DNA of 64,000 nucleotides from Vicinamibacterales bacterium (lineage in GTDB: Bacteria > Acidobacteriota > Vicinamibacteria > Vicinamibacterales > 2-12-FULL-66-21), in contig DATJFQ010000041.1 in assembly GCA_035495555.1 (NCBI GenBank), positions 91,894-155,893 of the forward strand, given 5' to 3'. Positions 8,570-61,045 of the stretch are shown here, one piece after another (position 1 is the first letter of the stretch; every line of letters starts with the position of its first letter). The position numbers and the translations under genes were made by a program. Under the pieces are notes generated by a model. It saw only the letters and a program-made list of their open reading frames with translations. It was not told the origin of the DNA and ran no database searches.

Positions 8570-11524
<2,955 letters not shown>

Positions 11525-30274: not shown

Positions 30275-30676
30275 ATGGCCAATACCTCAGGCGGCGCGTC
30301 CAGCGGTCTGTCCGTGCTCGTCGTCGACGACAACCGTGATTCGGCGGAGATGCTCCAGGTGCTGCTCAGCATGCTTGGGCACAGCGTCGCCGTGGCGCAC
30401 ACCGGCCGCAGTGCGATCGATACGGTCGTCGAGACGAATCCGCATGTCGTGCTGCTCGATATCGGCTTGCCCGATATGAGCGGCTATGAGGTGGCGCGCG
30501 AGATCCGCTCATCGAATGCGGCGCCGGTGCGGCTGATTGCCTTGACGGGTTGGGGGCAGGAAGAAGTGGCGCGGCAGGCGGCGGACGCCGGGTTCGATCA
30601 GCACCTTACGAAACCGGCCGATCCGGCAGTACTCGAGCGGATTCTCAGCGAGATCGCATCTTCAGTGGTGCGATAG
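30275..30676 (+). CDS. Stand-alone response regulator receiver domain protein
   Basis: Internal start MANTSGGASSGLSVLVVDDN (ATG 30275). LLDIGLPDMSG (phospho-Asp), conserved LTGW and HLTKP. No output domain. Confidence 0.85.
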   Translation: MANTSGGASSGLSVLVVDDNRDSAEMLQVLLSMLGHSVAVAHTGRSAIDTVVETNPHVVLLDIGLPDMSGYEVAREIRSSNAAPVRLIALTGWGQEEVARQAADAGFDQHLTKPADPAVLERILSEIASSVVR

Positions 30677-30760
30677 ACAACTACACAACTGCACAACTGC
30701 CAACGACCCAAGGCGTTCGAGCATTTACGCCTTGGGTGTTTGTGTAGTTGTGTTTGTGCA
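30676..30760. repeat. AACTACACAACT-type low-GC imperfect palindromic element, with a core hairpin likely acting as a bidirectional terminator
   Basis: Left arm: caactacacaactgcacaactgccaac. Core stem: CCCAAGGCG (30707-30715) / CGCCTTGGG (30728-30736). Right arm: gtttgtgtagttgtgtttgtgcac. Lies between convergent genes. Confidence 0.7.
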
Positions 30761-45542: not shown

Positions 45543-45958
45543 GCGTCGCAGCACGCCGTAAGCCGAATTCTGTCCGCCTTCGCGCCCTGACGGGCGCTCC
45601 GGCGTGACGATCATTCCTCTAGCCCCGCCATTGCTGGCGGGATCAAGCAGCCTACCCGGAGACCTTGAACGGGCCGTTCTCGAGCGTCCCCCTATTTGGC
45701 TTTGCTCCGTGCGGGGTTTTGCCTGCCGTCCCTGTTACCAGGCACGCGGTGCGCTCTTACCGCACCTTTTCACCCTTACCCGCGTTCGCCCCAGGCTCGA
45801 GAGCCGAGAGCACACACGGGCGGTATGTTTTCTGTGCCACTTTCCTTCGAGTTGCCCCGACCGGGCGTTACCCGGCGCACTGCCCTGCGGAGTTCGGACT
45901 TTCCTCCCGCCTTCGCGCGTCGCGCGAACGCGGACGATCGTCTGTCGTACTGCGACGC
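45543..45958 (-). ncRNA. rnpB: RNase P RNA, bacterial type A
   Basis: The minus strand carries these motifs: GAGGAAAGTCCGAACTCCGCAGGGCAG; GGGTGAAAAGGTGCGGTAAGAGCGCACCG; CAGGCAAAACCCCGCACGGAGCAA; ACAGAATTCGGCTTACGG. The P1 helix pairs GCGTCGCAG (5' end) with CTGCGACGC (3' end), followed by TTTTT. Confidence 0.95.
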
Positions 45959-47462: not shown

Positions 47463-48946
47463 CGTGAGTCGTCCACCGTTGCGATGACGAACGTGCGTTG
47501 CGCCTGCGTGGGATCGTACCCGTAAAACGCGAGCGTCTGTCCGGGACGTGCGGCGCCGAGCATGCGCTCGAACTCGGCGGTCGACCGCACCGGCTGCCGG
47601 TTGATGTCCATCACGATGAAGCCGCGACGCATCGCCGGAACGAACGACGCGCCGGCGGGATCGACTTTGGTCACGATCACGCCCTGCACCGAGTCGGGAA
47701 TCTCGAGCCTTCTCGCGAAGCCGGCATCGAGGTCCCGCACCGTCAGCCCGAGCAGCGGCCCGTTGGGGACGACCACCGGCACGGCACCCCGGCCGGCGAG
47801 GCCGGTCGTACGATCGGCGTTGTCCCCCTCGCGCGGTGGACGTTCCGTCAGCCGCACGGGCGTCGGCAGGTGGCGGCCGTCGCGGAGCACGTCGAGTCGC
47901 GCCATGGACCCCGGCTGACGCGCGGAGATGTCGCGAATCAGCTCCTCGTTCGTCCAGACATCGTGCCCGTCGACCGACAGGATGATGTCGTAGGGCCTCA
48001 ACCCGGCGCGTTCGGCCGGCGAACTCGCGGTGACGTCCTGGACCAGTGCGCCGCGGCTCACCGGAAGATGCAGCGATCGCTGGAGATCGGGCGTGACGTC
48101 GGTCAGCGCGACCCCGATGAAGCCGCGCGACACCTTGCCGCGCGCTTTGAGTTGCGGCAGGATCGCCATCGCCTGATTGATCGGCACCGCGAACCCGATG
48201 TTGCTCGCGCGCGAGCTGATAGCGGAGTTGATGCCGATCACCTGCCCCTGCGCGTTGATCAGCGGCCCTCCGCTGTTGCCGAAATTGATCGCGGCGTCGG
48301 TCTGGATGTAGTCGTCCAGGCTCGCATCGAACAGCTTCCGCCCGATGAAACTGACGACGCCGACCGTCACCGAGTGGACGTAGCCGAGCGGGTTGCCGAT
48401 CGCGCAGACCCACTCGCCGACGCGCAAATTGTCCGAATCTCCAATGGCGGCCTGCGGCAGATTCGAGACGCCGGTGACGTGCAGCAGCGCGACGTCGATC
48501 GCCGGATCCGATCCCACGACGTCTGCACGCAGCGTACGCCCGTCCGCAAATGTGACGGAGATACGGTCGGCATCCTGGATGACGTGGTAGTTCGTCAGGA
48601 TGAATCCCTGCGCATCGATGACGAAACCGCTGCCGGACCCCTGGTGCGGAACATCGAAATCGCGCGGCTCGTCGGCGGGCTCATCGGCCCGGCGATGGCC
48701 GGCACGGGATGCGGCGTCGATGTTGACGACCGCGGGGTTGATCCGCTCGGCCACATCGGCGAAGTTGACGGAAGTGCCGGCGGCCGCGCCGGTCGCGGCA
48801 GTAGACGCGGGACGGAGGCGCTGCGCTGGCGCAGCCGCGGGAATCCCGCCCGCCGTAGCGCCCGCTCCGCCGCCGGCGATGATGGCGCCGACGAAGAACG
48901 AGACGGCAGACGACAACGTGACCGTCACGAAGGTGAATCGGCGCAT
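47459..48946 (-). CDS. htrA: Do/DegP/HtrA family periplasmic serine protease with two PDZ domains
   Basis: Internal start MRRFTFVTVTLSSAV (ATG 48946). TNYHV (His), DVALL (Asp), GNSGGPL (Ser). Confidence 0.92.
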   Translation of the reverse strand: MRRFTFVTVTLSSAVSFFVGAIIAGGGAGATAGGIPAAAPAQRLRPASTAATGAAAGTSVNFADVAERINPAVVNIDAASRAGHRRADEPADEPRDFDVPHQGSGSGFVIDAQGFILTNYHVIQDADRISVTFADGRTLRADVVGSDPAIDVALLHVTGVSNLPQAAIGDSDNLRVGEWVCAIGNPLGYVHSVTVGVVSFIGRKLFDASLDDYIQTDAAINFGNSGGPLINAQGQVIGINSAISSRASNIGFAVPINQAMAILPQLKARGKVSRGFIGVALTDVTPDLQRSLHLPVSRGALVQDVTASSPAERAGLRPYDIILSVDGHDVWTNEELIRDISARQPGSMARLDVLRDGRHLPTPVRLTERPPREGDNADRTTGLAGRGAVPVVVPNGPLLGLTVRDLDAGFARRLEIPDSVQGVIVTKVDPAGASFVPAMRRGFIVMDINRQPVRSTAEFERMLGAARPGQTLAFYGYDPTQAQRTFVIATVDDSR

Positions 48947-48947
48947 A

Positions 48948-48977
48948 TTCTGAATTCCGACTTCTGAATTCCGACTT

Positions 48978-48979
<2 letters not shown>
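48948..48979. repeat. Tandem 14-mer TTCTGAATTCCGAC x2 (plus a partial third) filling the ligA-htrA spacer
   Basis: 48948-48961 and 48962-48975 are identical, followed by ttct. Each copy contains an EcoRI-type GAATTC palindrome. Confidence 0.85.
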
Positions 48980-53143: not shown

Positions 53144-55096
53144 TCATCGAATGCGAGATCCCGGCGGGACGTCGCCGTCGAAGCTGACGAGCGTCGGCTT
53201 GCCCCCTTCGGGGCTCGCCGCGAGGATCATTCCGTTCGATTCGATCCCCATCAGCTTGGCAGGTTTGAGGTTGAACACGATGCCGACCGTCCTGCCGACG
53301 AGCTGCTCCGGTTCGTAGGCCTCGGCGATGCCCGCAACCAGCGTTCGCTGTTCGGTGCCGACGTCGATCGACAGCTTCATCAGCTTGCGAGAATTCGGCA
53401 CCTTCTCCGCCGCAAGCACCTTGGCAACCCGCAGATCGACTTTCATGAAGTCGTCGATCGTGATTCTGTCGGCGGTCGGGGTCGGCGCAGCGGGTGCAGG
53501 GGGCGTCGTCTGGGTCGAGGGTGTCGGAGTGCCGCCCTGCGGCGGGTTCGAATTCGATTCGTTCGCGGACAGGTTCGCTGGTTTTTCGCTCACTGTGTTC
53601 CTCTCGATGCGCGGCCACAGGGCCGGGCCCTTTTGAATGCGTCGCTCGCCTTCGTTCCGCCACGCGGCATCCGACAGCCGCACCGGTTCGGCCGCACCCA
53701 CGCGACGACGAATCTCGCCGGCCGATGTCGGTATGAATGGCTGCAGCAGGATACCGGCTACCCGAACCGCTTCGGCGAGGTCGTACAACACCTGGCTGAG
53801 GCGCGCCGCCTTCGCGTCATCGCGCGCGAGCGCCCACGGCTCCGTTTCGGCGATGTACTCGTTGGCGGCATCGACGATGCTGAACGCAGCGGCCGCGCCG
53901 CGTTCGAGTGCGAACGAGTCCATTCCGAGGCGGTATTCCGTCAGCGCTGCTGCGGCCACGGACGCCAGCCGCCCGGGGCCTTCGGCTGGCAGCAGCACGT
54001 TCCCGCGATATTTCTCCGCCATCGCCGAGATGCGGCTCACGAGATTGCCCAGGTTGTTCGCAAGGTCGACGTTGTACCGCTCCTGAAAGCGCGCCCAGGA
54101 AAAGTCGGGATCACCGCCGTAGGTGACCTCTTTCACGAGGTAAAGGCGCAAGGGATCGACGCCGAGCCGCTGCGCCGCGTCAACGGGATCGACGACGTTG
54201 CCAAGCGACTTGCTCATGCGCTGGCCGTCCACGGTGATGAAGCCATGGCCGAACACCTGCTTGGGCAGCGCAATGCCGGCGCTCATCAGCATTGCCGGCC
54301 AGATCACCGTGTGGAACCGTGTGATGTCCTTCCCGATGATGTGCAGGTTCGCCGGCCACCACGTCTCGAAAAGCGCCGCGTCTGCTCCGAATCCCACGGC
54401 GGACGCGTAGTTGATCAGGGCGTCGAACCAGACGTAGACAACGCTGTTCGGATCCTGAGGGAGCGGGATGCCCCACGCCTGCCCGGCGCGGCTGATCGAA
54501 ATGTCGTCGAGGCCGGCTTCGAGCAGCCGCACGATCTCGTTGCGACGGATCTCCGGCTCCAGGAACTCGGGGTGTTCGCGGAAATGCTCCAGAAGCCGGT
54601 CTCTGTAGGCCGAGAGGCGGAAAAAGTGGTTCTTCTCCTTGATCCACTCGACGGTGCTGTGAAGCGGGCATCTGCCGTCGACGAGATCCTTCTCCTGCTT
54701 GAACGCCTCGCACCCGTTGCAGTACCAGCCTTCGTAAAAGCCCTCGTACACGTCGCCCCGGGCCGTGATGCGGCGCACGAGCTCCCGTACCGCCTCGCGA
54801 TGTCGAGGCTCGGTGGTCCTGATGAAATCGTCGTACGAGATGTCGAGCAGGTCCCAGACGGATCGAAACTCCTGCTCCATCTGGTTGCAGTACGCCTGGG
54901 GATCCATTGCCAGCTCGCGCGCACGGCGATACACGTTCTGCGAGTGCTCGTCGTTGCCCATGACGAAGTGCGTCTCGACGCCCTTCAGCCGCTGATAGCG
55001 CGCAATCGCGTCCGCCGTGATTTTCTCGTAGGCGGTCCCGAGGTGCGGCCGGCTGTTCACGTAGTCGATCGCCGTCGTCAGATAGAAGCGAACCAT
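53144..55096 (-). CDS. metG: Methionine--tRNA ligase with a C-terminal tRNA-binding (Trbp111/EMAP-like) domain
   Basis: Class I motifs: HLGTAYEKI (HIGH-type) and KMSKSLGN (KMSKS). C-terminal DLRVAKVLAAEKVPNSRKLMKLSIDVG. Confidence 0.96.
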   Translation of the reverse strand: MVRFYLTTAIDYVNSRPHLGTAYEKITADAIARYQRLKGVETHFVMGNDEHSQNVYRRARELAMDPQAYCNQMEQEFRSVWDLLDISYDDFIRTTEPRHREAVRELVRRITARGDVYEGFYEGWYCNGCEAFKQEKDLVDGRCPLHSTVEWIKEKNHFFRLSAYRDRLLEHFREHPEFLEPEIRRNEIVRLLEAGLDDISISRAGQAWGIPLPQDPNSVVYVWFDALINYASAVGFGADAALFETWWPANLHIIGKDITRFHTVIWPAMLMSAGIALPKQVFGHGFITVDGQRMSKSLGNVVDPVDAAQRLGVDPLRLYLVKEVTYGGDPDFSWARFQERYNVDLANNLGNLVSRISAMAEKYRGNVLLPAEGPGRLASVAAAALTEYRLGMDSFALERGAAAAFSIVDAANEYIAETEPWALARDDAKAARLSQVLYDLAEAVRVAGILLQPFIPTSAGEIRRRVGAAEPVRLSDAAWRNEGERRIQKGPALWPRIERNTVSEKPANLSANESNSNPPQGGTPTPSTQTTPPAPAAPTPTADRITIDDFMKVDLRVAKVLAAEKVPNSRKLMKLSIDVGTEQRTLVAGIAEAYEPEQLVGRTVGIVFNLKPAKLMGIESNGMILAASPEGGKPTLVSFDGDVPPGSRIR

Positions 55097-55104
55097 GCTG
55101 AACG

Positions 55105-55216
55105 ATTCTAACTACACAACTACGCAACTCCCAATTCCACCAGGCCCGCGGTTGGCAATTGTCGCTCGAGTAGTTGGTGGGCTTGTGCAGTTGGTACTTG
55201 CGGCGTTGCGTAGTTA
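55105..55216. repeat. Second AACTACACAACT-type low-GC imperfect palindromic element
   Basis: taactacacaactacgcaactcccaattcc at the left shares an about 27-nt core with 30680-30706. The right end gttgcgtagtt is the reverse complement of aactacgcaac. Lies in the larC-metG spacer. Confidence 0.7.
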
Positions 55217-57733: not shown

Positions 57734-58522
57734 TCAGTACGGCCAGCTGCAATCGAACAACACTTCAGCCGAGCCGGTGAGGTAAAGCCCATCGTCTCGC
57801 CACTCGACGCGCTGGGTGCCGCCGGGGGAGACGACCTGCACATCGCGTACGGCGCCCCCGTACGCGATCGCGGCCACGGCCGCCGCGCATGCGCCGGTGC
57901 CGGACGCCTCGGTCGGACCCACGCCGCGTTCCCAGATGAGAATCCGCACCCGGTCCGCCGCTTCAACGGCGGCCAACTCCACGTTCGTGCCTGCCGGAAA
58001 GGACGGGTGCACCGCCAGCCGCCCGGCGACGTTGTGGAGCCGCTCGTTCGAGAGATCGCCGAGCACCACGCACTGCGGGTTGCCCACGCGCATCGTTATG
58101 GCCTCGACGCGTTCGCTCTCCAGCGCAATCACACGTCGCGCGACATCTTCCGGCTGGCCCATTGCGGCGCGAAACGTGAGGCGTCTCCCGTGGACGTCGA
58201 GCAACTCCAGCACCTTCGCGCCCGCGTCCGTTTCGATGATGACGATGGCGCCGACCGGCAGCTCGCGTTCGCCTGCGACGAGCGCCGCCAGGCAGCGGAC
58301 GCCGTTGCCGGACACCTCCGAGTAGCTGCCGTCGGCGTTCAGCAGATCCATCACGGCGCCCGACTCCGTCGGCCGGTGGACGATGACGCCGTCGGCGCCA
58401 ATGCCTCGATGGCGTTCGCACAGGTCACGCGTGAGCGCCGCGCGGTCCACGTCCCGCGGCAGGTCGCCCGCGTTGACGAGCAGGAAATCGTTTCCGTAGG
58501 CGTGCGCCTTGACGATCCTCAT
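57734..58522 (-). CDS. dapF: Diaminopimelate epimerase
   Basis: Internal start MRIVKAHAYGNDFLLV (ATG 58522). Catalytic Cys motifs SGNGVRC and SGTGACAAA. Confidence 0.92.
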   Translation of the reverse strand: MRIVKAHAYGNDFLLVNAGDLPRDVDRAALTRDLCERHRGIGADGVIVHRPTESGAVMDLLNADGSYSEVSGNGVRCLAALVAGERELPVGAIVIIETDAGAKVLELLDVHGRRLTFRAAMGQPEDVARRVIALESERVEAITMRVGNPQCVVLGDLSNERLHNVAGRLAVHPSFPAGTNVELAAVEAADRVRILIWERGVGPTEASGTGACAAAVAAIAYGGAVRDVQVVSPGGTQRVEWRDDGLYLTGSAEVLFDCSWPY

Positions 58523-59277
58523 CTGCGGCAGAACGCCAGAAGATGCCACCCGAAGCGGCGGACCCAGGGTCGCGGCAGCGCGTTGAACGTTCCGACGAAG
58601 CACGTGTTGAACAGGGTCCCCTTCCAGCCGCCGTGCAGGCGTGATTTCACCGGGAACCGCTCTTCGACGATCCGCACGTCGCTGAAACCCTCGAGCAGCG
58701 CCCGGAATTCCGAAAGGCTGTACTTCTTCAGCACCGGTGCGTCTTCGTGCTCGAGCCCCACCTTCATCAGCTTCGACAGCGCGTTGAGCCACGAGATGCG
58801 GTTGTAGACCTGAAACACGGCCGTCCCGCCGGGCTTCAACACCCGCCGGCACTGCGCGACCAGCGCCCTGTCGTCTGTCGTGTATTGCACGACCCCGTGC
58901 GCGTAGACGAGATCGAATGTCTCGTCTGCAAACGGCAGGCGCTCCCCGTCGGCTTCGCGAAGGTCCGCGGCGAGCCCCTGCTGCGCGAAATTTGCCTTTG
59001 CGAGCGCGATGGCAGACGAGGAGAGATCGACCCCGCTGACGATCGCCCCGCCGCGCGCGAAGCGCATCAGATCCGTCCCCGCCCCGCAGCCCACGTCGAG
59101 GACCCGTCGTCCGCGATAGGCGTCGAAGTCAATCAGCCTCGGAAGATGGTGCAGTTTCTCGAAGTGATACTGGTCCAGGTCCTGAAAGAACCGGGGCGTC
59201 CCGGGATCGGCGGTCGAGACGTCCAGATCGTGAATATGGGCGTCCCAGTAGCGGCGCACCGCGGCGTTGTCACTCAC
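58519..59277 (-). CDS. Class I SAM-dependent methyltransferase
   Basis: GTG 59277. SAM-binding motif VLDVGCGAGTD. ATGA overlap with dapF. Confidence 0.85.
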   Translation of the reverse strand: MSDNAAVRRYWDAHIHDLDVSTADPGTPRFFQDLDQYHFEKLHHLPRLIDFDAYRGRRVLDVGCGAGTDLMRFARGGAIVSGVDLSSSAIALAKANFAQQGLAADLREADGERLPFADETFDLVYAHGVVQYTTDDRALVAQCRRVLKPGGTAVFQVYNRISWLNALSKLMKVGLEHEDAPVLKKYSLSEFRALLEGFSDVRIVEERFPVKSRLHGGWKGTLFNTCFVGTFNALPRPWVRRFGWHLLAFCRR

Positions 59278-59425
59278 GCAAAGATCTTAAGCAAAGATCT
59301 TAAGCAAAGATCCAAAGATCAAGAGCCAAAGACGTGATCTTTGCATCTTTGCGATCTTTGCCATCTTTGCCATCTTTGCCAGCTTTGCATCTTTGCGATC
59401 TTTGCGCGATGCTTGTGATCTTTGC
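59278..59425. repeat. Converging arrays of the octamer GCAAAGAT / ATCTTTGC filling a whole divergent intergenic region
   Basis: Top strand, 59278-59333: three perfect GCAAAGAT (two within 13-mers GCAAAGATCTTAA) plus two CCAAAGA(T/C) variants. 59337-59425: eight perfect ATCTTTGC at 8-9-nt spacing plus variants AGCTTTGC and ATGCTTG. Confidence 0.9.
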
Positions 59426-61045
59426 ATGCGGTTTCGCGACGTCGCGGCGCTCTCCGACCGCGAGCACGACATCCTCGTCGTCGGCGGCGGCATTTACGGC
59501 CTCGCGATCGCGCACGACGCGGCGAGCCGCGGCTTGAGCGTCGCGCTCGTCGAGCGCGGGGACTTCGCGTCCGCCGCATCCTTCAACCATCAGAAGACCG
59601 CGCACGGCGGCCTGCGCACGCTGCAGACGGGCCGCCTCGACAAGTCGCGCGAATCGATTCGTGAGCGGCGCGCGCTGGCGCGGATGGCGCCACGCCTGCT
59701 CCGTCCGCTGCCGTTCATCGTCGGCACGTACCGATCGGCGACGAAGAATCGCCTGGCGCTTCGCGCCGCGTTCAGAATCGACGCGTGGCTCGGCCGCGAT
59801 CGCAACGAGGGCGTCGAGCCGGAACTCCATCTGCCGCCCGCGCGGCTCGTGTCGAAAGCGGCGACGCTGAAGCTGTTCCCCGGCGTCCGGCAGGACGGCC
59901 TGACCGGGGGCGCGATGTGGTACGACTACCAGATCGTCGAGACCGACCGGCTTGCGATTGCCGTTGCGGCCGCGGCGGACGCACACGGCGCGCGTCTGGC
60001 CAACTACGTTGAAGCCGTCGAACCGATCCGCGCTGCGGGCGCGATCCGCGGGATGCGCGTGCGCGACGTCCTCACCGGCGACACACACGACGTGGCGGCG
60101 CGGCTGACGATCAACGCCGCTGGCGCACACGCGGGTGCGATGATGCGGCAGCTCGGCGTGTCGCACGAACTGCTGCTGGTCCAGGCGATGAACCTCGTCA
60201 CGTCGCTGCCGGCCAGCGACATCGCGATGGCCGCCGCGGGCCGCGACGGCCGCATGCTGACGCTCACACCGTGGCACGGGCGCGCCCTGGTCGGCACAGC
60301 CCAATCGCCCACGTTCCGGCAGCCGGGCGACTGCCCGCCAACCGCCGACGAGGTCGATGCGTTCATTCGCGACGTCAACGAGGTCTTTCCAAAGCTCGGT
60401 TTACAGCGAGAGCACGTCACGCTCGTCCATTGCGGTGTCGTTCCGGCGCAGCGCGGGCCGGGAGGGCGGCCGGATCTTCTGGCCGCACCATTGATCCTCG
60501 ACCATGCGACGAGCGGCGCGCCCGGCTCGATGACCGTCGTCGGCGTGAAGTACACGACGGCACGGGGCGTGGCCGCCAAAGCGGTCAGCGCCGCGGCGCG
60601 ACGGCTTGGTCGTTCGATTCCTCCGTCGCGCACCGGCGACGCCCCGCTGCCGGGCGCCGGCATCGCCGATCACGAAGCGCTGGCGATTGAAACCGCGCGG
60701 GCCGTCGGCCTCGAGCTCGCGCCGCCGATGCTCCGCCACCTGACCGCCATCTACGGCGATCGCTGCGCGGCTATCATCCGGCTTATGGCCGAGCGCACCG
60801 AGTGGCGAATGCCCCTCGTGCCGGGACACCTCACGGTGGGCGCCGAGGCGATTTACGCGATCAGGGAGGAGATGGCCTGCACGGTCGCTGACATCGTCAT
60901 CCGACGCACAGAGCTCGGCGCCGAAGGAAAGCCGCCGGACGCCATTACCACACGGCTTGCTGGTGTCGCGGCGGAGGAACTGAAATGGGACGCGATGCGG
61001 GTAGAACGCGAAATACAGAACGTAAACGCGTTCTACGCCGTGTAG
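59426..61045 (+). CDS. glpD: FAD-dependent glycerol-3-phosphate dehydrogenase/oxidase
   Basis: Internal start MRFRDVAALSDREHDILVVGGGIYGLAIAHDAASRG (ATG 59426). SFNHQKTAHGGLR. Confidence 0.85.
   Translation: MRFRDVAALSDREHDILVVGGGIYGLAIAHDAASRGLSVALVERGDFASAASFNHQKTAHGGLRTLQTGRLDKSRESIRERRALARMAPRLLRPLPFIVGTYRSATKNRLALRAAFRIDAWLGRDRNEGVEPELHLPPARLVSKAATLKLFPGVRQDGLTGGAMWYDYQIVETDRLAIAVAAAADAHGARLANYVEAVEPIRAAGAIRGMRVRDVLTGDTHDVAARLTINAAGAHAGAMMRQLGVSHELLLVQAMNLVTSLPASDIAMAAAGRDGRMLTLTPWHGRALVGTAQSPTFRQPGDCPPTADEVDAFIRDVNEVFPKLGLQREHVTLVHCGVVPAQRGPGGRPDLLAAPLILDHATSGAPGSMTVVGVKYTTARGVAAKAVSAAARRLGRSIPPSRTGDAPLPGAGIADHEALAIETARAVGLELAPPMLRHLTAIYGDRCAAIIRLMAERTEWRMPLVPGHLTVGAEAIYAIREEMACTVADIVIRRTELGAEGKPPDAITTRLAGVAAEELKWDAMRVEREIQNVNAFYAV

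Follow-up and report, generated by a model that had tools for sequence, protein, structure and literature searches.

Relation to described repeat systems

Short tandemly repeated repetitive (STRR) sequences of cyanobacteria are short tandem heptamers that form intergenic hairpins, with examples in both orientations in the hupS-hupL spacer and the hoxW promoter (PMC2670836). The subject of this study is a sequence of comparable design, the 148-bp spacer between the divergent methyltransferase (MTase) and glpD genes of a Vicinamibacterales bacterium. It occupies positions 59278-59425 of the window, that is, the whole 64,000-nt stretch of DNA that was analysed, and consists of an array of GCAAAGAT-type units facing an array of ATCTTTGC-type units. 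With a rough probability of 0.6, the spacer represents a lineage-specific palindrome of long-unit (8-9 nt) simple sequence repeats (SSRs) that overwrote the ancestral promoter and whose ends now act as core promoters.

The spacer resembles STRRs in that tandem short units (about 7 nt in STRRs) lie in intergenic, non-coding DNA in both orientations and are capable of forming a hairpin (PMC2670836), and in that cyanobacterial heptamers can likewise overlap start codons (bioRxiv 10.1101/2022.06.06.494920). Arrays of this kind are also numerous in the lineage when compared with Escherichia coli K-12. STRRs comprise a few fixed heptamers, each present at many loci (about 100) of one genome, whereas the unit described here is 8-9 (or 13) nt long, is confined to one locus in the DNA compared, and gives way to different units at other loci. 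Further differences are the host phylum, Acidobacteriota, and the extent of the array, which fills a whole divergent spacer and appears to have replaced the ancestral promoter.

Geobacter metallireducens carries tandem octa- or heptanucleotides, 3-5 copies to a set, and the sets are paired on opposite strands of intergenic DNA and assigned to classes 1-3 (PMC2700814). These units of 8 nt (GTTGCTYN, TCTCCGTS[Y]) or 7 nt, placed on opposite strands at variable distance, have the same architecture as the glpD spacer, in which five units on the + strand are paired with ten on the - strand. The Geobacter repeats were interpreted as sites for IHF or HU without a test (PMC2700814). Their classes are multicopy (24, 21 and 8 pairs) with one consensus each, whereas no further pair of the present unit was seen in the window or in a comparison set of 368 kb of Vicinamibacterales DNA from related loci. 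The same unit does occur at another locus of a different species (L087, see below), and the comparison covers the window and the 368 kb.

TAACTGA repeats of Beggiatoaceae, cyanobacteria and Bacteroidetes lie a few nt from start codons, in regions without a canonical ribosome-binding site (RBS) (PMC4679880). In the same manner, GATCTTTGC adjoins both the ATG and the GTG of the genes flanking the present spacer, without a Shine-Dalgarno (SD) sequence. TAACTGA is a single heptamer used genome-wide as direct repeats (one indirect set in 170), for which a role in RNA has been proposed, whereas the array described here stands at a single locus and has opposed arms.

Operators composed of contiguous 7-8-bp units, direct and inverted, extend over promoters in the case of the MetJ metboxes and of ParG. 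The omega protein of plasmid pSM19035 binds contiguous 7-8-bp heptad operators, again direct or inverted and over promoters (PMC9499535). The operators of these ribbon-helix-helix (RHH) proteins are strictly regular in spacing, are served by a cognate and usually adjacent regulator, and are conserved across orthologues. The present units are irregularly spaced, the neighbouring genes encode no DNA-binding regulator domains, and orthologous spacers either lack repeats or contain other units.

Contingency loci of Haemophilus and Neisseria offer a further parallel, since they too place a tandem repeat of slippage-prone copy number in a promoter or 5' untranslated region (UTR) (PMC12721329, PMC11868660), but their units are mostly of 1-7 nt and hypervariable between clones, whereas this array is stable within its strain cluster and has opposed arms. 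Repetitive extragenic palindromic (REP) sequences, bacterial interspersed mosaic elements (BIMEs) and transposable elements of the miniature inverted-repeat type (MITEs) differ in being dispersed; no dispersed copies were present in the window or the 368 kb, and no match to Rfam or to a repeat family was found. An intrinsic terminator, in which a GC-rich hairpin precedes a U tract on the downstream side of a gene, differs in its position, the present element lying between two gene starts. Polymerase slippage has been put forward as the cause of an excess of heptamer SSRs (PMC4692102). The element fits the general kind of the STRRs and paired repeats and belongs to no specific named family; its unit is private to the locus, its spacing irregular and a cognate regulator lacking.

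Anatomy of the spacer

The spacer is the complete gap between the GTG start codon of the MTase gene and the ATG of glpD. Its principal parts and boundaries are as follows.

58519-59277, - strand: coding sequence of a class-I S-adenosylmethionine (SAM)-dependent methyltransferase (Pfam Methyltransf_11/25), forming the left boundary of the array
59278-59333, + strand: left arm, five GCAAAGAT-type units starting at 59278, 59291, 59304, 59312 and 59326
59304-59352, no strand assigned: central, best-paired hairpin or cruciform core, with arms at 59304-59321 and 59335-59352 (18 nt, 94% complementary) and a 13-nt loop
59334-59346, + strand: first copy of GTGATCTTTGCAT, which together with a second copy at 59415-59427 bounds the deletion in contig L003
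59336-59425, + strand: right arm, ten (G/C)ATCTTTGC-type units, eight of them perfect, with a period of 8-9 nt
59426-61045, + strand: glpD, encoding a flavin adenine dinucleotide (FAD)-dependent glycerol-3-phosphate dehydrogenase (Pfam DAO and DAO_C), forming the right boundary

The MTase gene is the first of an MTase-dapF operon, overlaps dapF downstream and starts with GTG at 59277-59275. Its N-terminus aligns with those of orthologues (M/V-S/T-D-N-A-A-V), in which the start codon is GTG in array-bearing lineages as against ATG in short-spacer lineages. The glpD ATG at 59426 is the start common to orthologues (MR.RD...). An in-frame TTG at 59393, which would extend GlpD into the repeat, was rejected on the grounds that orthologues begin at the ATG. 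Coding use of the array itself is excluded by its period of 8 nt.

The sequence-only reading of this DNA had described the whole spacer as two mutually reverse-complementary arrays, and mapping of the individual units bears this out. In the left arm, perfect copies of GCAAAGAT at 59278, 59291 and 59304 are followed by CCAAAGAT at 59312 and CCAAAGAC at 59326, units 1 and 2 being contained within GCAAAGATCTTAA 13-mers (13-mer x2.7 at 59278-59312 by Tandem Repeats Finder, TRF). The right arm has perfect copies of ATCTTTGC at 59337, 59345, 59354, 59363, 59372, 59389, 59398 and 59418, an imperfect AGCTTTGC at 59381 and a degenerate ATGCTTGT at 59409; a window-specific expansion of the form CATCTTTGC-CATCTTTGC-CAGCTTTGC occupies 59362-59388, and the final unit adjoins the glpD ATG. 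Run on the spacer, TRF returned a 9-mer x8.1 in addition to the 13-mer, both as head-to-tail copies in non-coding DNA. Successive CTTTGC starts in the right arm are 8, 9, 9, 9, 9, 8, 9 and 20 nt apart and the left-arm units 13, 13, 8 and 14 nt. The near-helical-turn phasing previously suggested does not hold at 8-9 bp, as against about 10.5 bp per turn.

Twelve perfect GCAAAGAT/ATCTTTGC octamers occur in the window, where 1.15 were expected and 0 of 100 shuffles reached 12; 11 lie in the spacer and the sole other, at 10880, is within a large open reading frame (ORF). The spacer is AT-rich and rich in GATC sites, as had been remarked, with a G+C content of 42.6% compared to 66.2% for the window, eight GATC sites against 1.4 expected at window density and two AGATCT sites. 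The long imperfect hairpin envisaged from the opposed arrays is also feasible: RNA folds of the spacer yielded -54 and -59 kcal/mol (z = -5.0 and -6.0) and the DNA fold -35 kcal/mol (z = -4.2). No terminator was found in the spacer by a scan of 59150-59550. On the sense strand of both genes GATCTTTGC is directly 5' of the start codon (GATCTTTGC-ATG and GATCTTTGC-GTG), and neither the MTase gene nor glpD has an SD sequence.

Assembly support and copy number

Eight further contigs, originating in different metagenomes, encode an identical GlpD protein, with 99.8-99.98% nucleotide identity where DNA was compared. The array is not an assembly artefact, because the identical 148-bp spacer is present in six further independent assemblies (JGI and Logan); at a seventh place the same 148-bp gap is known from gene calls alone. 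Copy number was unchanged in 7/8 other contigs of the strain cluster, which lends no support to rapid phase variation. The spacer of L003, one contig from ENA, measures 67 bp as the result of an exact 81-bp deletion (nine units) between the GTGATCTTTGCAT copies at 59334 and 59415, which may be an allele arisen naturally by slippage or else a collapse of the assembly at this place. In the related L429-type lineage, the spacer was identical across three assemblies (L429, L430 and L431).

Orthologous spacers and the ancestral promoter-like block

The GlpD homologues are named as Vicinamibacterales (Acidobacteriota). Synteny is kept, with the LarC, RadC, DUF4398, dapF and MTase genes diverging from glpD, which in turn converges with a sortilin/BNR gene. 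The comparison covered about 80 regions upstream of orthologous glpD genes. In the majority state the Vicinamibacterales MTase/glpD spacer is 31-48 bp long and bears a strongly conserved promoter-like block, CTACTATAAGATAAA. In the form (C/T)TA(C/A)TATAAGATAAA, 6-12 nt from the ATG of a short spacer without an SD sequence, the block is found in >50 of the upstream regions at 50-88% GlpD identity, and as TATAAGATA it is conserved in 60+ orthologues. The close relatives L007, L009 and L010 (77-86% identical in GlpD) have repeat-free spacers of 31-34 bp, and for these three and the L108-L187 set the divergent upstream gene begins only about 30 nt away. From its TATAAG/TAAGAT hexamers and the TATAGT hexamers of the opposite strand, we read the block as a probable compact bidirectional promoter giving near-leaderless mRNAs.

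The block is absent from the window, L006, L429 and L432, where the genes are nonetheless intact and conserved; since it is missing, the spacer must here hold the promoters of both genes. About a quarter of the lineages carry 7-9-nt arrays in the glpD spacer, either replacing the block or added to it, with units and positions that vary. Arrays of GCAAAGATC at this spacer are limited to the window, L429-L432, L006/L110, L171 and L008, and only lineages of this type have wholly lost the block, with the array abutting the start codons. The arrays added to a retained block are as follows.

L012/L148, 5' of the block: CACGAAGAT opposed to CTTCGTG/GGCCTTTGT
L109/L113, 5' of the block: CACGGAGGC opposed to GCCTCCGTG
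L112, 5' of the block: CACAGAGAT opposed to ATCTCTGTG
L114/L115, 5' of the block: GACACGAAG
L177, between block and ATG: GTTTTTG
L182, between block and ATG: CAGTTCC opposed to GGAAACTG
L143, between block and ATG: CCAGTTTCC
L137, between block and ATG: CCAGCTAC
L163 and L150, between block and ATG: further arrays

In L163, L137, L143 and L182 the original ATG is kept after the block and is followed by the repeat arrays and then by a second ATG; the retained ATG may open a leaderless upstream ORF.

A sequence-specific regulator cannot account for different units at orthologous positions, whereas a mutational or structural cause can. The full-length GlpD tree groups the lineages as ((window, L006) 0.74, L007) 1.0 and (L008, L009) 0.70, with L010 basal. 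Array-bearing and short-spacer lineages are therefore interleaved, which implies repeated gain, or allele exchange or sorting.

Conserved ends and putative core promoters

The spacers of L429, L430, L431 and L432 (93-94% GlpD identity) are 156-157 bp long and of the same design as that of the window. Identity at 4-fold degenerate sites amounts to 77-78% against L429/L432 and 61-63% against L006. The segments of the spacer that are conserved, and the hexamers within them, are listed below.

59278-59299, - strand: MTase-proximal conserved segment of 22-35 nt, identical at 21/22 positions in L429/L432 and 34/35 in L006
59284-59289, - strand: TAAGAT, -10-like, 6 nt upstream of the MTase GTG, a hexamer shared with the TATAAGATA block of relatives
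59383-59425, + strand: glpD-proximal conserved segment of 43 nt, identical at 42/43 positions in L429/L430/L431/L432
59385-59390, + strand: TTGCAT, -35-like but weak (3/6), at a unit junction, 17 nt upstream of GATGCT and conserved in L429/L432
59408-59413, + strand: GATGCT, -10-like, in the sole irregular unit (GCGATGCTTGT), 12 nt upstream of the glpD ATG

With neutral identity set at 0.75, 44/45 matches have a chance of about 4e-5, an illustrative figure close to the observed 42/43. The interior of the spacer could not be aligned with L429/L432, in which the left arm has 7-8 units in place of 5 and the right arm 5-6 in place of 10. Because identity at the ends lies far above that of 4-fold sites while interior copy number drifts, the ends of the array are judged to be under constraint and the interior free of it.

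A second TAAGAT copy is found on the - strand at 59297-59302. The distance from -10 to ATG at the glpD end matches the TAAGAT-N10-12-ATG arrangement of the relatives. Given the conserved ends, the matching geometry and the loss of the ancestral promoter from a locus whose two genes remain intact, we infer that the TAAGAT end is the core promoter of the MTase gene, giving a leaderless or near-leaderless mRNA, and that the TTGCAT/GATGCT end is that of glpD. Two other candidates were discarded. TGTGAT (59414-59419) was rejected as the glpD -10 element on reading TGTGGT in L429/L432, and a Bacteroidetes-type promoter (-33 TTTG / -7 TAnnTTTG) was dropped, the block of the relatives having a TATAAGAT-type -10 and the units being without TA.

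Proposed origin and present function

From the observed anatomy and reality of the array, its patchy and unit-variable occurrence, the conservation of its ends only and the abundance of similar arrays (see below), the following history may be drawn. Two short tandem arrays in inverse orientation to each other would have arisen in the MTase/glpD spacer of the ancestor of a small clade of Vicinamibacterales, probably by slippage and fold-back, and would have replaced the ancestral 31-34-bp spacer with its bidirectional promoter block CTACTATAAGATA. Each arm would since have lengthened or shortened by replication slippage, the L003 deletion being a possible example. The parts functional today would be the two gene-proximal ends, as core promoter and initiation regions, arranged as TAAGAT, 6 nt and GTG for the MTase gene and as TTGCAT, 17 nt, GATGCT, 12 nt and ATG for glpD. 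Both mRNAs would be leaderless or very short-leadered and lack an SD sequence, as presumed for the relatives. The interior copies would largely be neutral by-products. At most they may move the two promoters from an overlapping position to roughly 120 bp apart and provide a cruciform-prone, AT-rich supercoil sink between the divergent genes.

Several points weigh against this interpretation. A scan of 59150-59550 for the sigma-70 consensus found no promoter in the spacer, and the proposed -10 and -35 elements match only 3-4/6 positions of that consensus, which is that of E. coli. A leaderless mRNA with GTG initiation would be unusual. The conserved ends fit protein-binding sites or a 5'-UTR function equally well. 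The arms have been homogenised separately, as 13-mers on the left and 8-9-mers on the right, so that ongoing hairpin-templated copying is not evident; co-evolution of the arms by such templating was considered and is not supported, here or in L012. The interleaving of array-bearing and short-spacer lineages in the GlpD tree requires that the same unit was gained twice or exchanged, and its recurrence could hint at selection for this motif.

The octamer outside the spacer

Outside the spacer the octamer was at background, with four singletons in the 368 kb against 3.7 expected and no regulon signal. BLAST of four arrays against all Vicinamibacterales loci, as a test for REP or MITE families, yielded self-matches and the orthologous L007/L157 pair only. 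Searches of the window and ten array-bearing loci against Rfam at gathering thresholds returned RNase P RNA and one cobalamin riboswitch, with no match to an array; the window copy of the former is a bacterial RNase P RNA class A at 45544-45953 on the - strand (RF00010, 283 bits).

A scan of 185,579 species genomes for three tandem ATCTTTGC units produced 95 stretches from very diverse phyla. About a quarter are coding (GGC-AAA-GAT, encoding collagen-like GKD repeats) and many of the rest are intergenic. An opposed GCAAAG-type arm accompanied 12/80 stretches as against 0/80 controls, on the 5' side in 11/12. In viral contigs, composition-matched control octamers gave 109, 99 and 7 matches compared to 20 for the real unit. 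A family conserved across phyla was rejected, control octamers being as frequent or more so, which points to an ordinary SSR background.

Intergenic (A/G)TCTTTGC arrays were noted in Thermoanaerobaculia, Akkermansia, Saprospiraceae, Chromatiales, Planctomycetota and Spirochaetota (L042, L046, L047, L066, L069, L074 and L090). They pair with 5' GCAAAG/GCCAAG arrays in hairpins of -55 to -100 kcal/mol, the outer ends of which repeatedly read TTTCA(C/A)CGC...GCG(T/G)TGAAA; the control scans suggest that the unit itself is nothing special. In L087 (4400-4540), a Vicinamibacterales metagenome-assembled genome (MAG) at a locus other than glpD, GATCTTTGC x4 adjoins a GGTTGGAG x4 array. These arrays are bordered by a divergent gene that has a TCTAAGATAAC promoter-like block and by a gene whose SD sequence, GGAGG, is normal, and the region is flanked by a 9-nt direct repeat, GTGTCAAGT. 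In the Bacteroidales MAG RUG13423 (L014, about 720-800), telomere-like CCCTAAA/CTAAACC heptamers adjoin a ATCTTTGC array and may be eukaryotic contamination of the MAG.

Similar opposed arrays in the window and in relatives

Analysis of the 368 kb with TRF identified 20, 12 and 10 arrays at periods 7, 8 and 9, respectively, while periods 4-6 and 10-12 were hardly represented. The density of period-7/8 arrays is 8.7 per 100 kb of Vicinamibacterales loci, whereas 100 kb of E. coli K-12 examined at the same settings contained no array of period 7-9. An opposed partner, defined as at least two reverse-complement units within 160 nt, was present for 21/40 arrays as against 7-8/40 when reversed or complemented units served as controls. 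Of 15 independent pairs, 12 have the A-rich arm on the 5' side (p = 0.035), the polarity of a bidirectional terminator.

Two further opposed arrays lie in the window. At 30676-30760, between convergent genes, ACAACT[AG]C and G[CT]AGTTGT arrays surround a GC hairpin; the left side reads ACAACTAC ACAACTGC ACAACTGC, the hairpin CCAAGGCGT...ACGCCTTGG and the right side GTGTTTGT GTAGTTGT GTTTGTGC. With an RNA fold of -46 kcal/mol (z = -5.2), this feature looks like a bidirectional terminator with periodic arms. At 55097-55213, between the LarC stop codon and the next - strand gene, opposed AACTAC/GTAGTT arrays employ a related unit, and the proximal copies run into TAGAAT 8 nt before the ATG of the - strand gene at 55096; folding gives this feature weak support (z = -1 to -1.9).

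The convergent glpD/sortilin spacer of many relatives contains long hairpins with tandem 7-8-mer arms of lineage-specific units (AATTGGTG, CGAATCC, GACAAGG/CTTCTGC, GCTGATT, ATGCCAA and GGGAGAA), and opposed arrays in such convergent spacers may act as terminators. The 8-mer pair AATTGGTG / CACCAATT forms a hairpin downstream of glpD in both L007 (2896-2971) and L157 (3122-3244). The GlpD proteins of these two are only 61% identical, and the shared array reflects either long-term conservation or convergence.

Other repeats were noted in the window. A perfect 14-mer, TTCTGAATTCCGAC x2.3, at 48948-48979 begins one base after a - strand ATG (48946-48944) and is the second repeat to reach a start codon; read on the sense strand, it is preceded by a TATACT hexamer and followed by the start codon, and an SD sequence is lacking. 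At 2304-2794 a GC-rich 195-nt unit is repeated x2.5 (92% identity), each copy opening with the palindrome CCATCGCATCAGCGCGATGG; a crude gene call yielded no confident ORF here, and the region matched nothing in Rfam at gathering threshold.

Alternative explanations

The sequence-only reading had raised the possibility of about 15 iterated operator sites for an unknown regulator. In such a model, an abundant DNA-binding protein would occupy the units cooperatively, cover the spacer and govern both promoters, candidates being an IHF/HU-like nucleoid-associated or global regulator and an RHH repressor resembling omega or MetJ. Many near-identical units in two orientations would suit such a protein, as would the retention of the unit in the window, L429/L432, L006, L171 and L008, which are non-monophyletic in the GlpD tree, and the GATCTTTGC x4 array at an unrelated locus of the Vicinamibacterales MAG L087. 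The architecture is that of the G. metallireducens 'putative global regulator binding sites' (PMC2700814), a proposal that rests on no test of its own, and a genuine precedent exists in the heptad operators of the omega type (PMC9499535). Against the model, the octamer is not above chance elsewhere in the 368 kb. The spacing is irregular (8, 9, 13, 14 and 20 nt) and no regulator gene is adjacent, the neighbours being MTase, dapF, DUF4398, RadC, LarC and the sortilin/BNR protein. Orthologous promoters of close relatives are either without such sites, as are the 31-34-bp spacers of L007, L009 and L010 (one half of what the sequence-only reading itself had named as its refutation, the other half concerning expression of the flanking genes), or have different units in the same place. 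Only the gene-proximal ends are conserved, while interior units drift between relatives that are 91% identical. The operator model is on balance rather unlikely. An element acting in RNA is unlikely as well: transcription from the distal arm would turn the proximal (A/G)UCUUUGC arm into a long, pyrimidine-rich 5' UTR without an SD sequence, recruiting ribosomal protein S1, a protein of the cold-shock type or another such factor and setting translation efficiency. In its support, the sense-strand repeat reaches the start codon of both genes, neither of which has an SD sequence, and the arrays of L177, L182, L143, L137 and L163 stand between block and ATG, presumably transcribed if the block is a promoter, in leaders also lacking an SD sequence. 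Parallels are provided by the TAACTGA repeats a few nt from start codons in RBS-poor regions (PMC4679880), by Nostoc heptamers that overlap start codons (bioRxiv 10.1101/2022.06.06.494920) and by the window gene starting at 48946 (-), with its 14-mer x2.3 between TATACT and ATG. The distal arms, however, have no TAnnnT hexamer in the needed orientation and no consensus promoter, conservation is limited to the last 22-43 nt by each gene and does not extend over the whole would-be UTR, and opposed arrays of other units are equally placed at the 3' ends of genes.

It is quite unlikely that opposed 7-9-nt arrays form a structure-based class of intergenic element built and maintained by Vicinamibacterales and many other bacteria. 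Such arrays would be cruciform or hairpin modules read by supercoiling or by a structure-specific nucleoid protein, serving as bidirectional terminators at convergent genes and here turned into a supercoil-coupled bidirectional promoter. If this were true, the narrow 7-9-nt unit range, the bias of the A-rich arm to the 5' side (12/15 here and 11/12 in other phyla) and the presence of the same unit in non-sister lineages would each signify a dedicated mechanism or selection. A phase-variable contingency locus, in which gain or loss of units switches expression of glpD or the MTase gene between cells, is highly improbable. Tandem repeats do lie in the promoter, the L003 allele lacks exactly nine units (81 bp between direct repeats), the L008 contig breaks within its array and copy number differs between 91%-identical relatives. 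Set against these are the L003 deletion's possible origin in assembly collapse, the identity of the spacer in six strain-cluster assemblies, with the same 148-bp gap at a seventh place, and in all three L429-type assemblies. Units of 8-9 nt are moreover far less prone to slippage than the tracts of 1-5 nt at classical contingency loci (PMC4692102), and the genes are of housekeeping type, not surface genes. The notion that the spacer is the remnant of a mobile element (a MITE, a REP sequence or a transposon end with multiple transposase-binding repeats), or an artefact of assembly, is hardly credible. Opposed subterminal repeats do resemble transposon ends, and Geobacter insertion sequence (IS) elements are found at fixed distances from the paired repeats (PMC2700814), but a terminal inverted repeat with target duplication is absent, as are a nearby transposase, a second copy in the window or the 368 kb of relatives and an Rfam match; the six further independent assemblies with an identical sequence exclude an artefact.

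Significance

Long-unit SSRs have been known in cyanobacteria since 1990 and were noted in Geobacter. To our knowledge, the function of such repeats in bacteria has never been explained. What is new here is limited to the phylum, the take-over of a divergent promoter to an unusually full extent and comparative evidence for function in the ends alone; no new regulator and no new kind of system is revealed. On the interpretation preferred above, that of an SSR palindrome with recruited ends, the spacer would be a clean case from nature in which repeats overwrote a compact and deeply conserved bidirectional promoter and their ends were taken up as core promoters, and as such it bears on promoter turnover and on the role of long-unit SSRs in bacteria. 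Soil Vicinamibacterales, which are abundant and poorly cultured, carry arrays of this type at roughly one per 10 kb, and these affect both assembly, as contigs break in them, and the annotation of gene starts and promoters.

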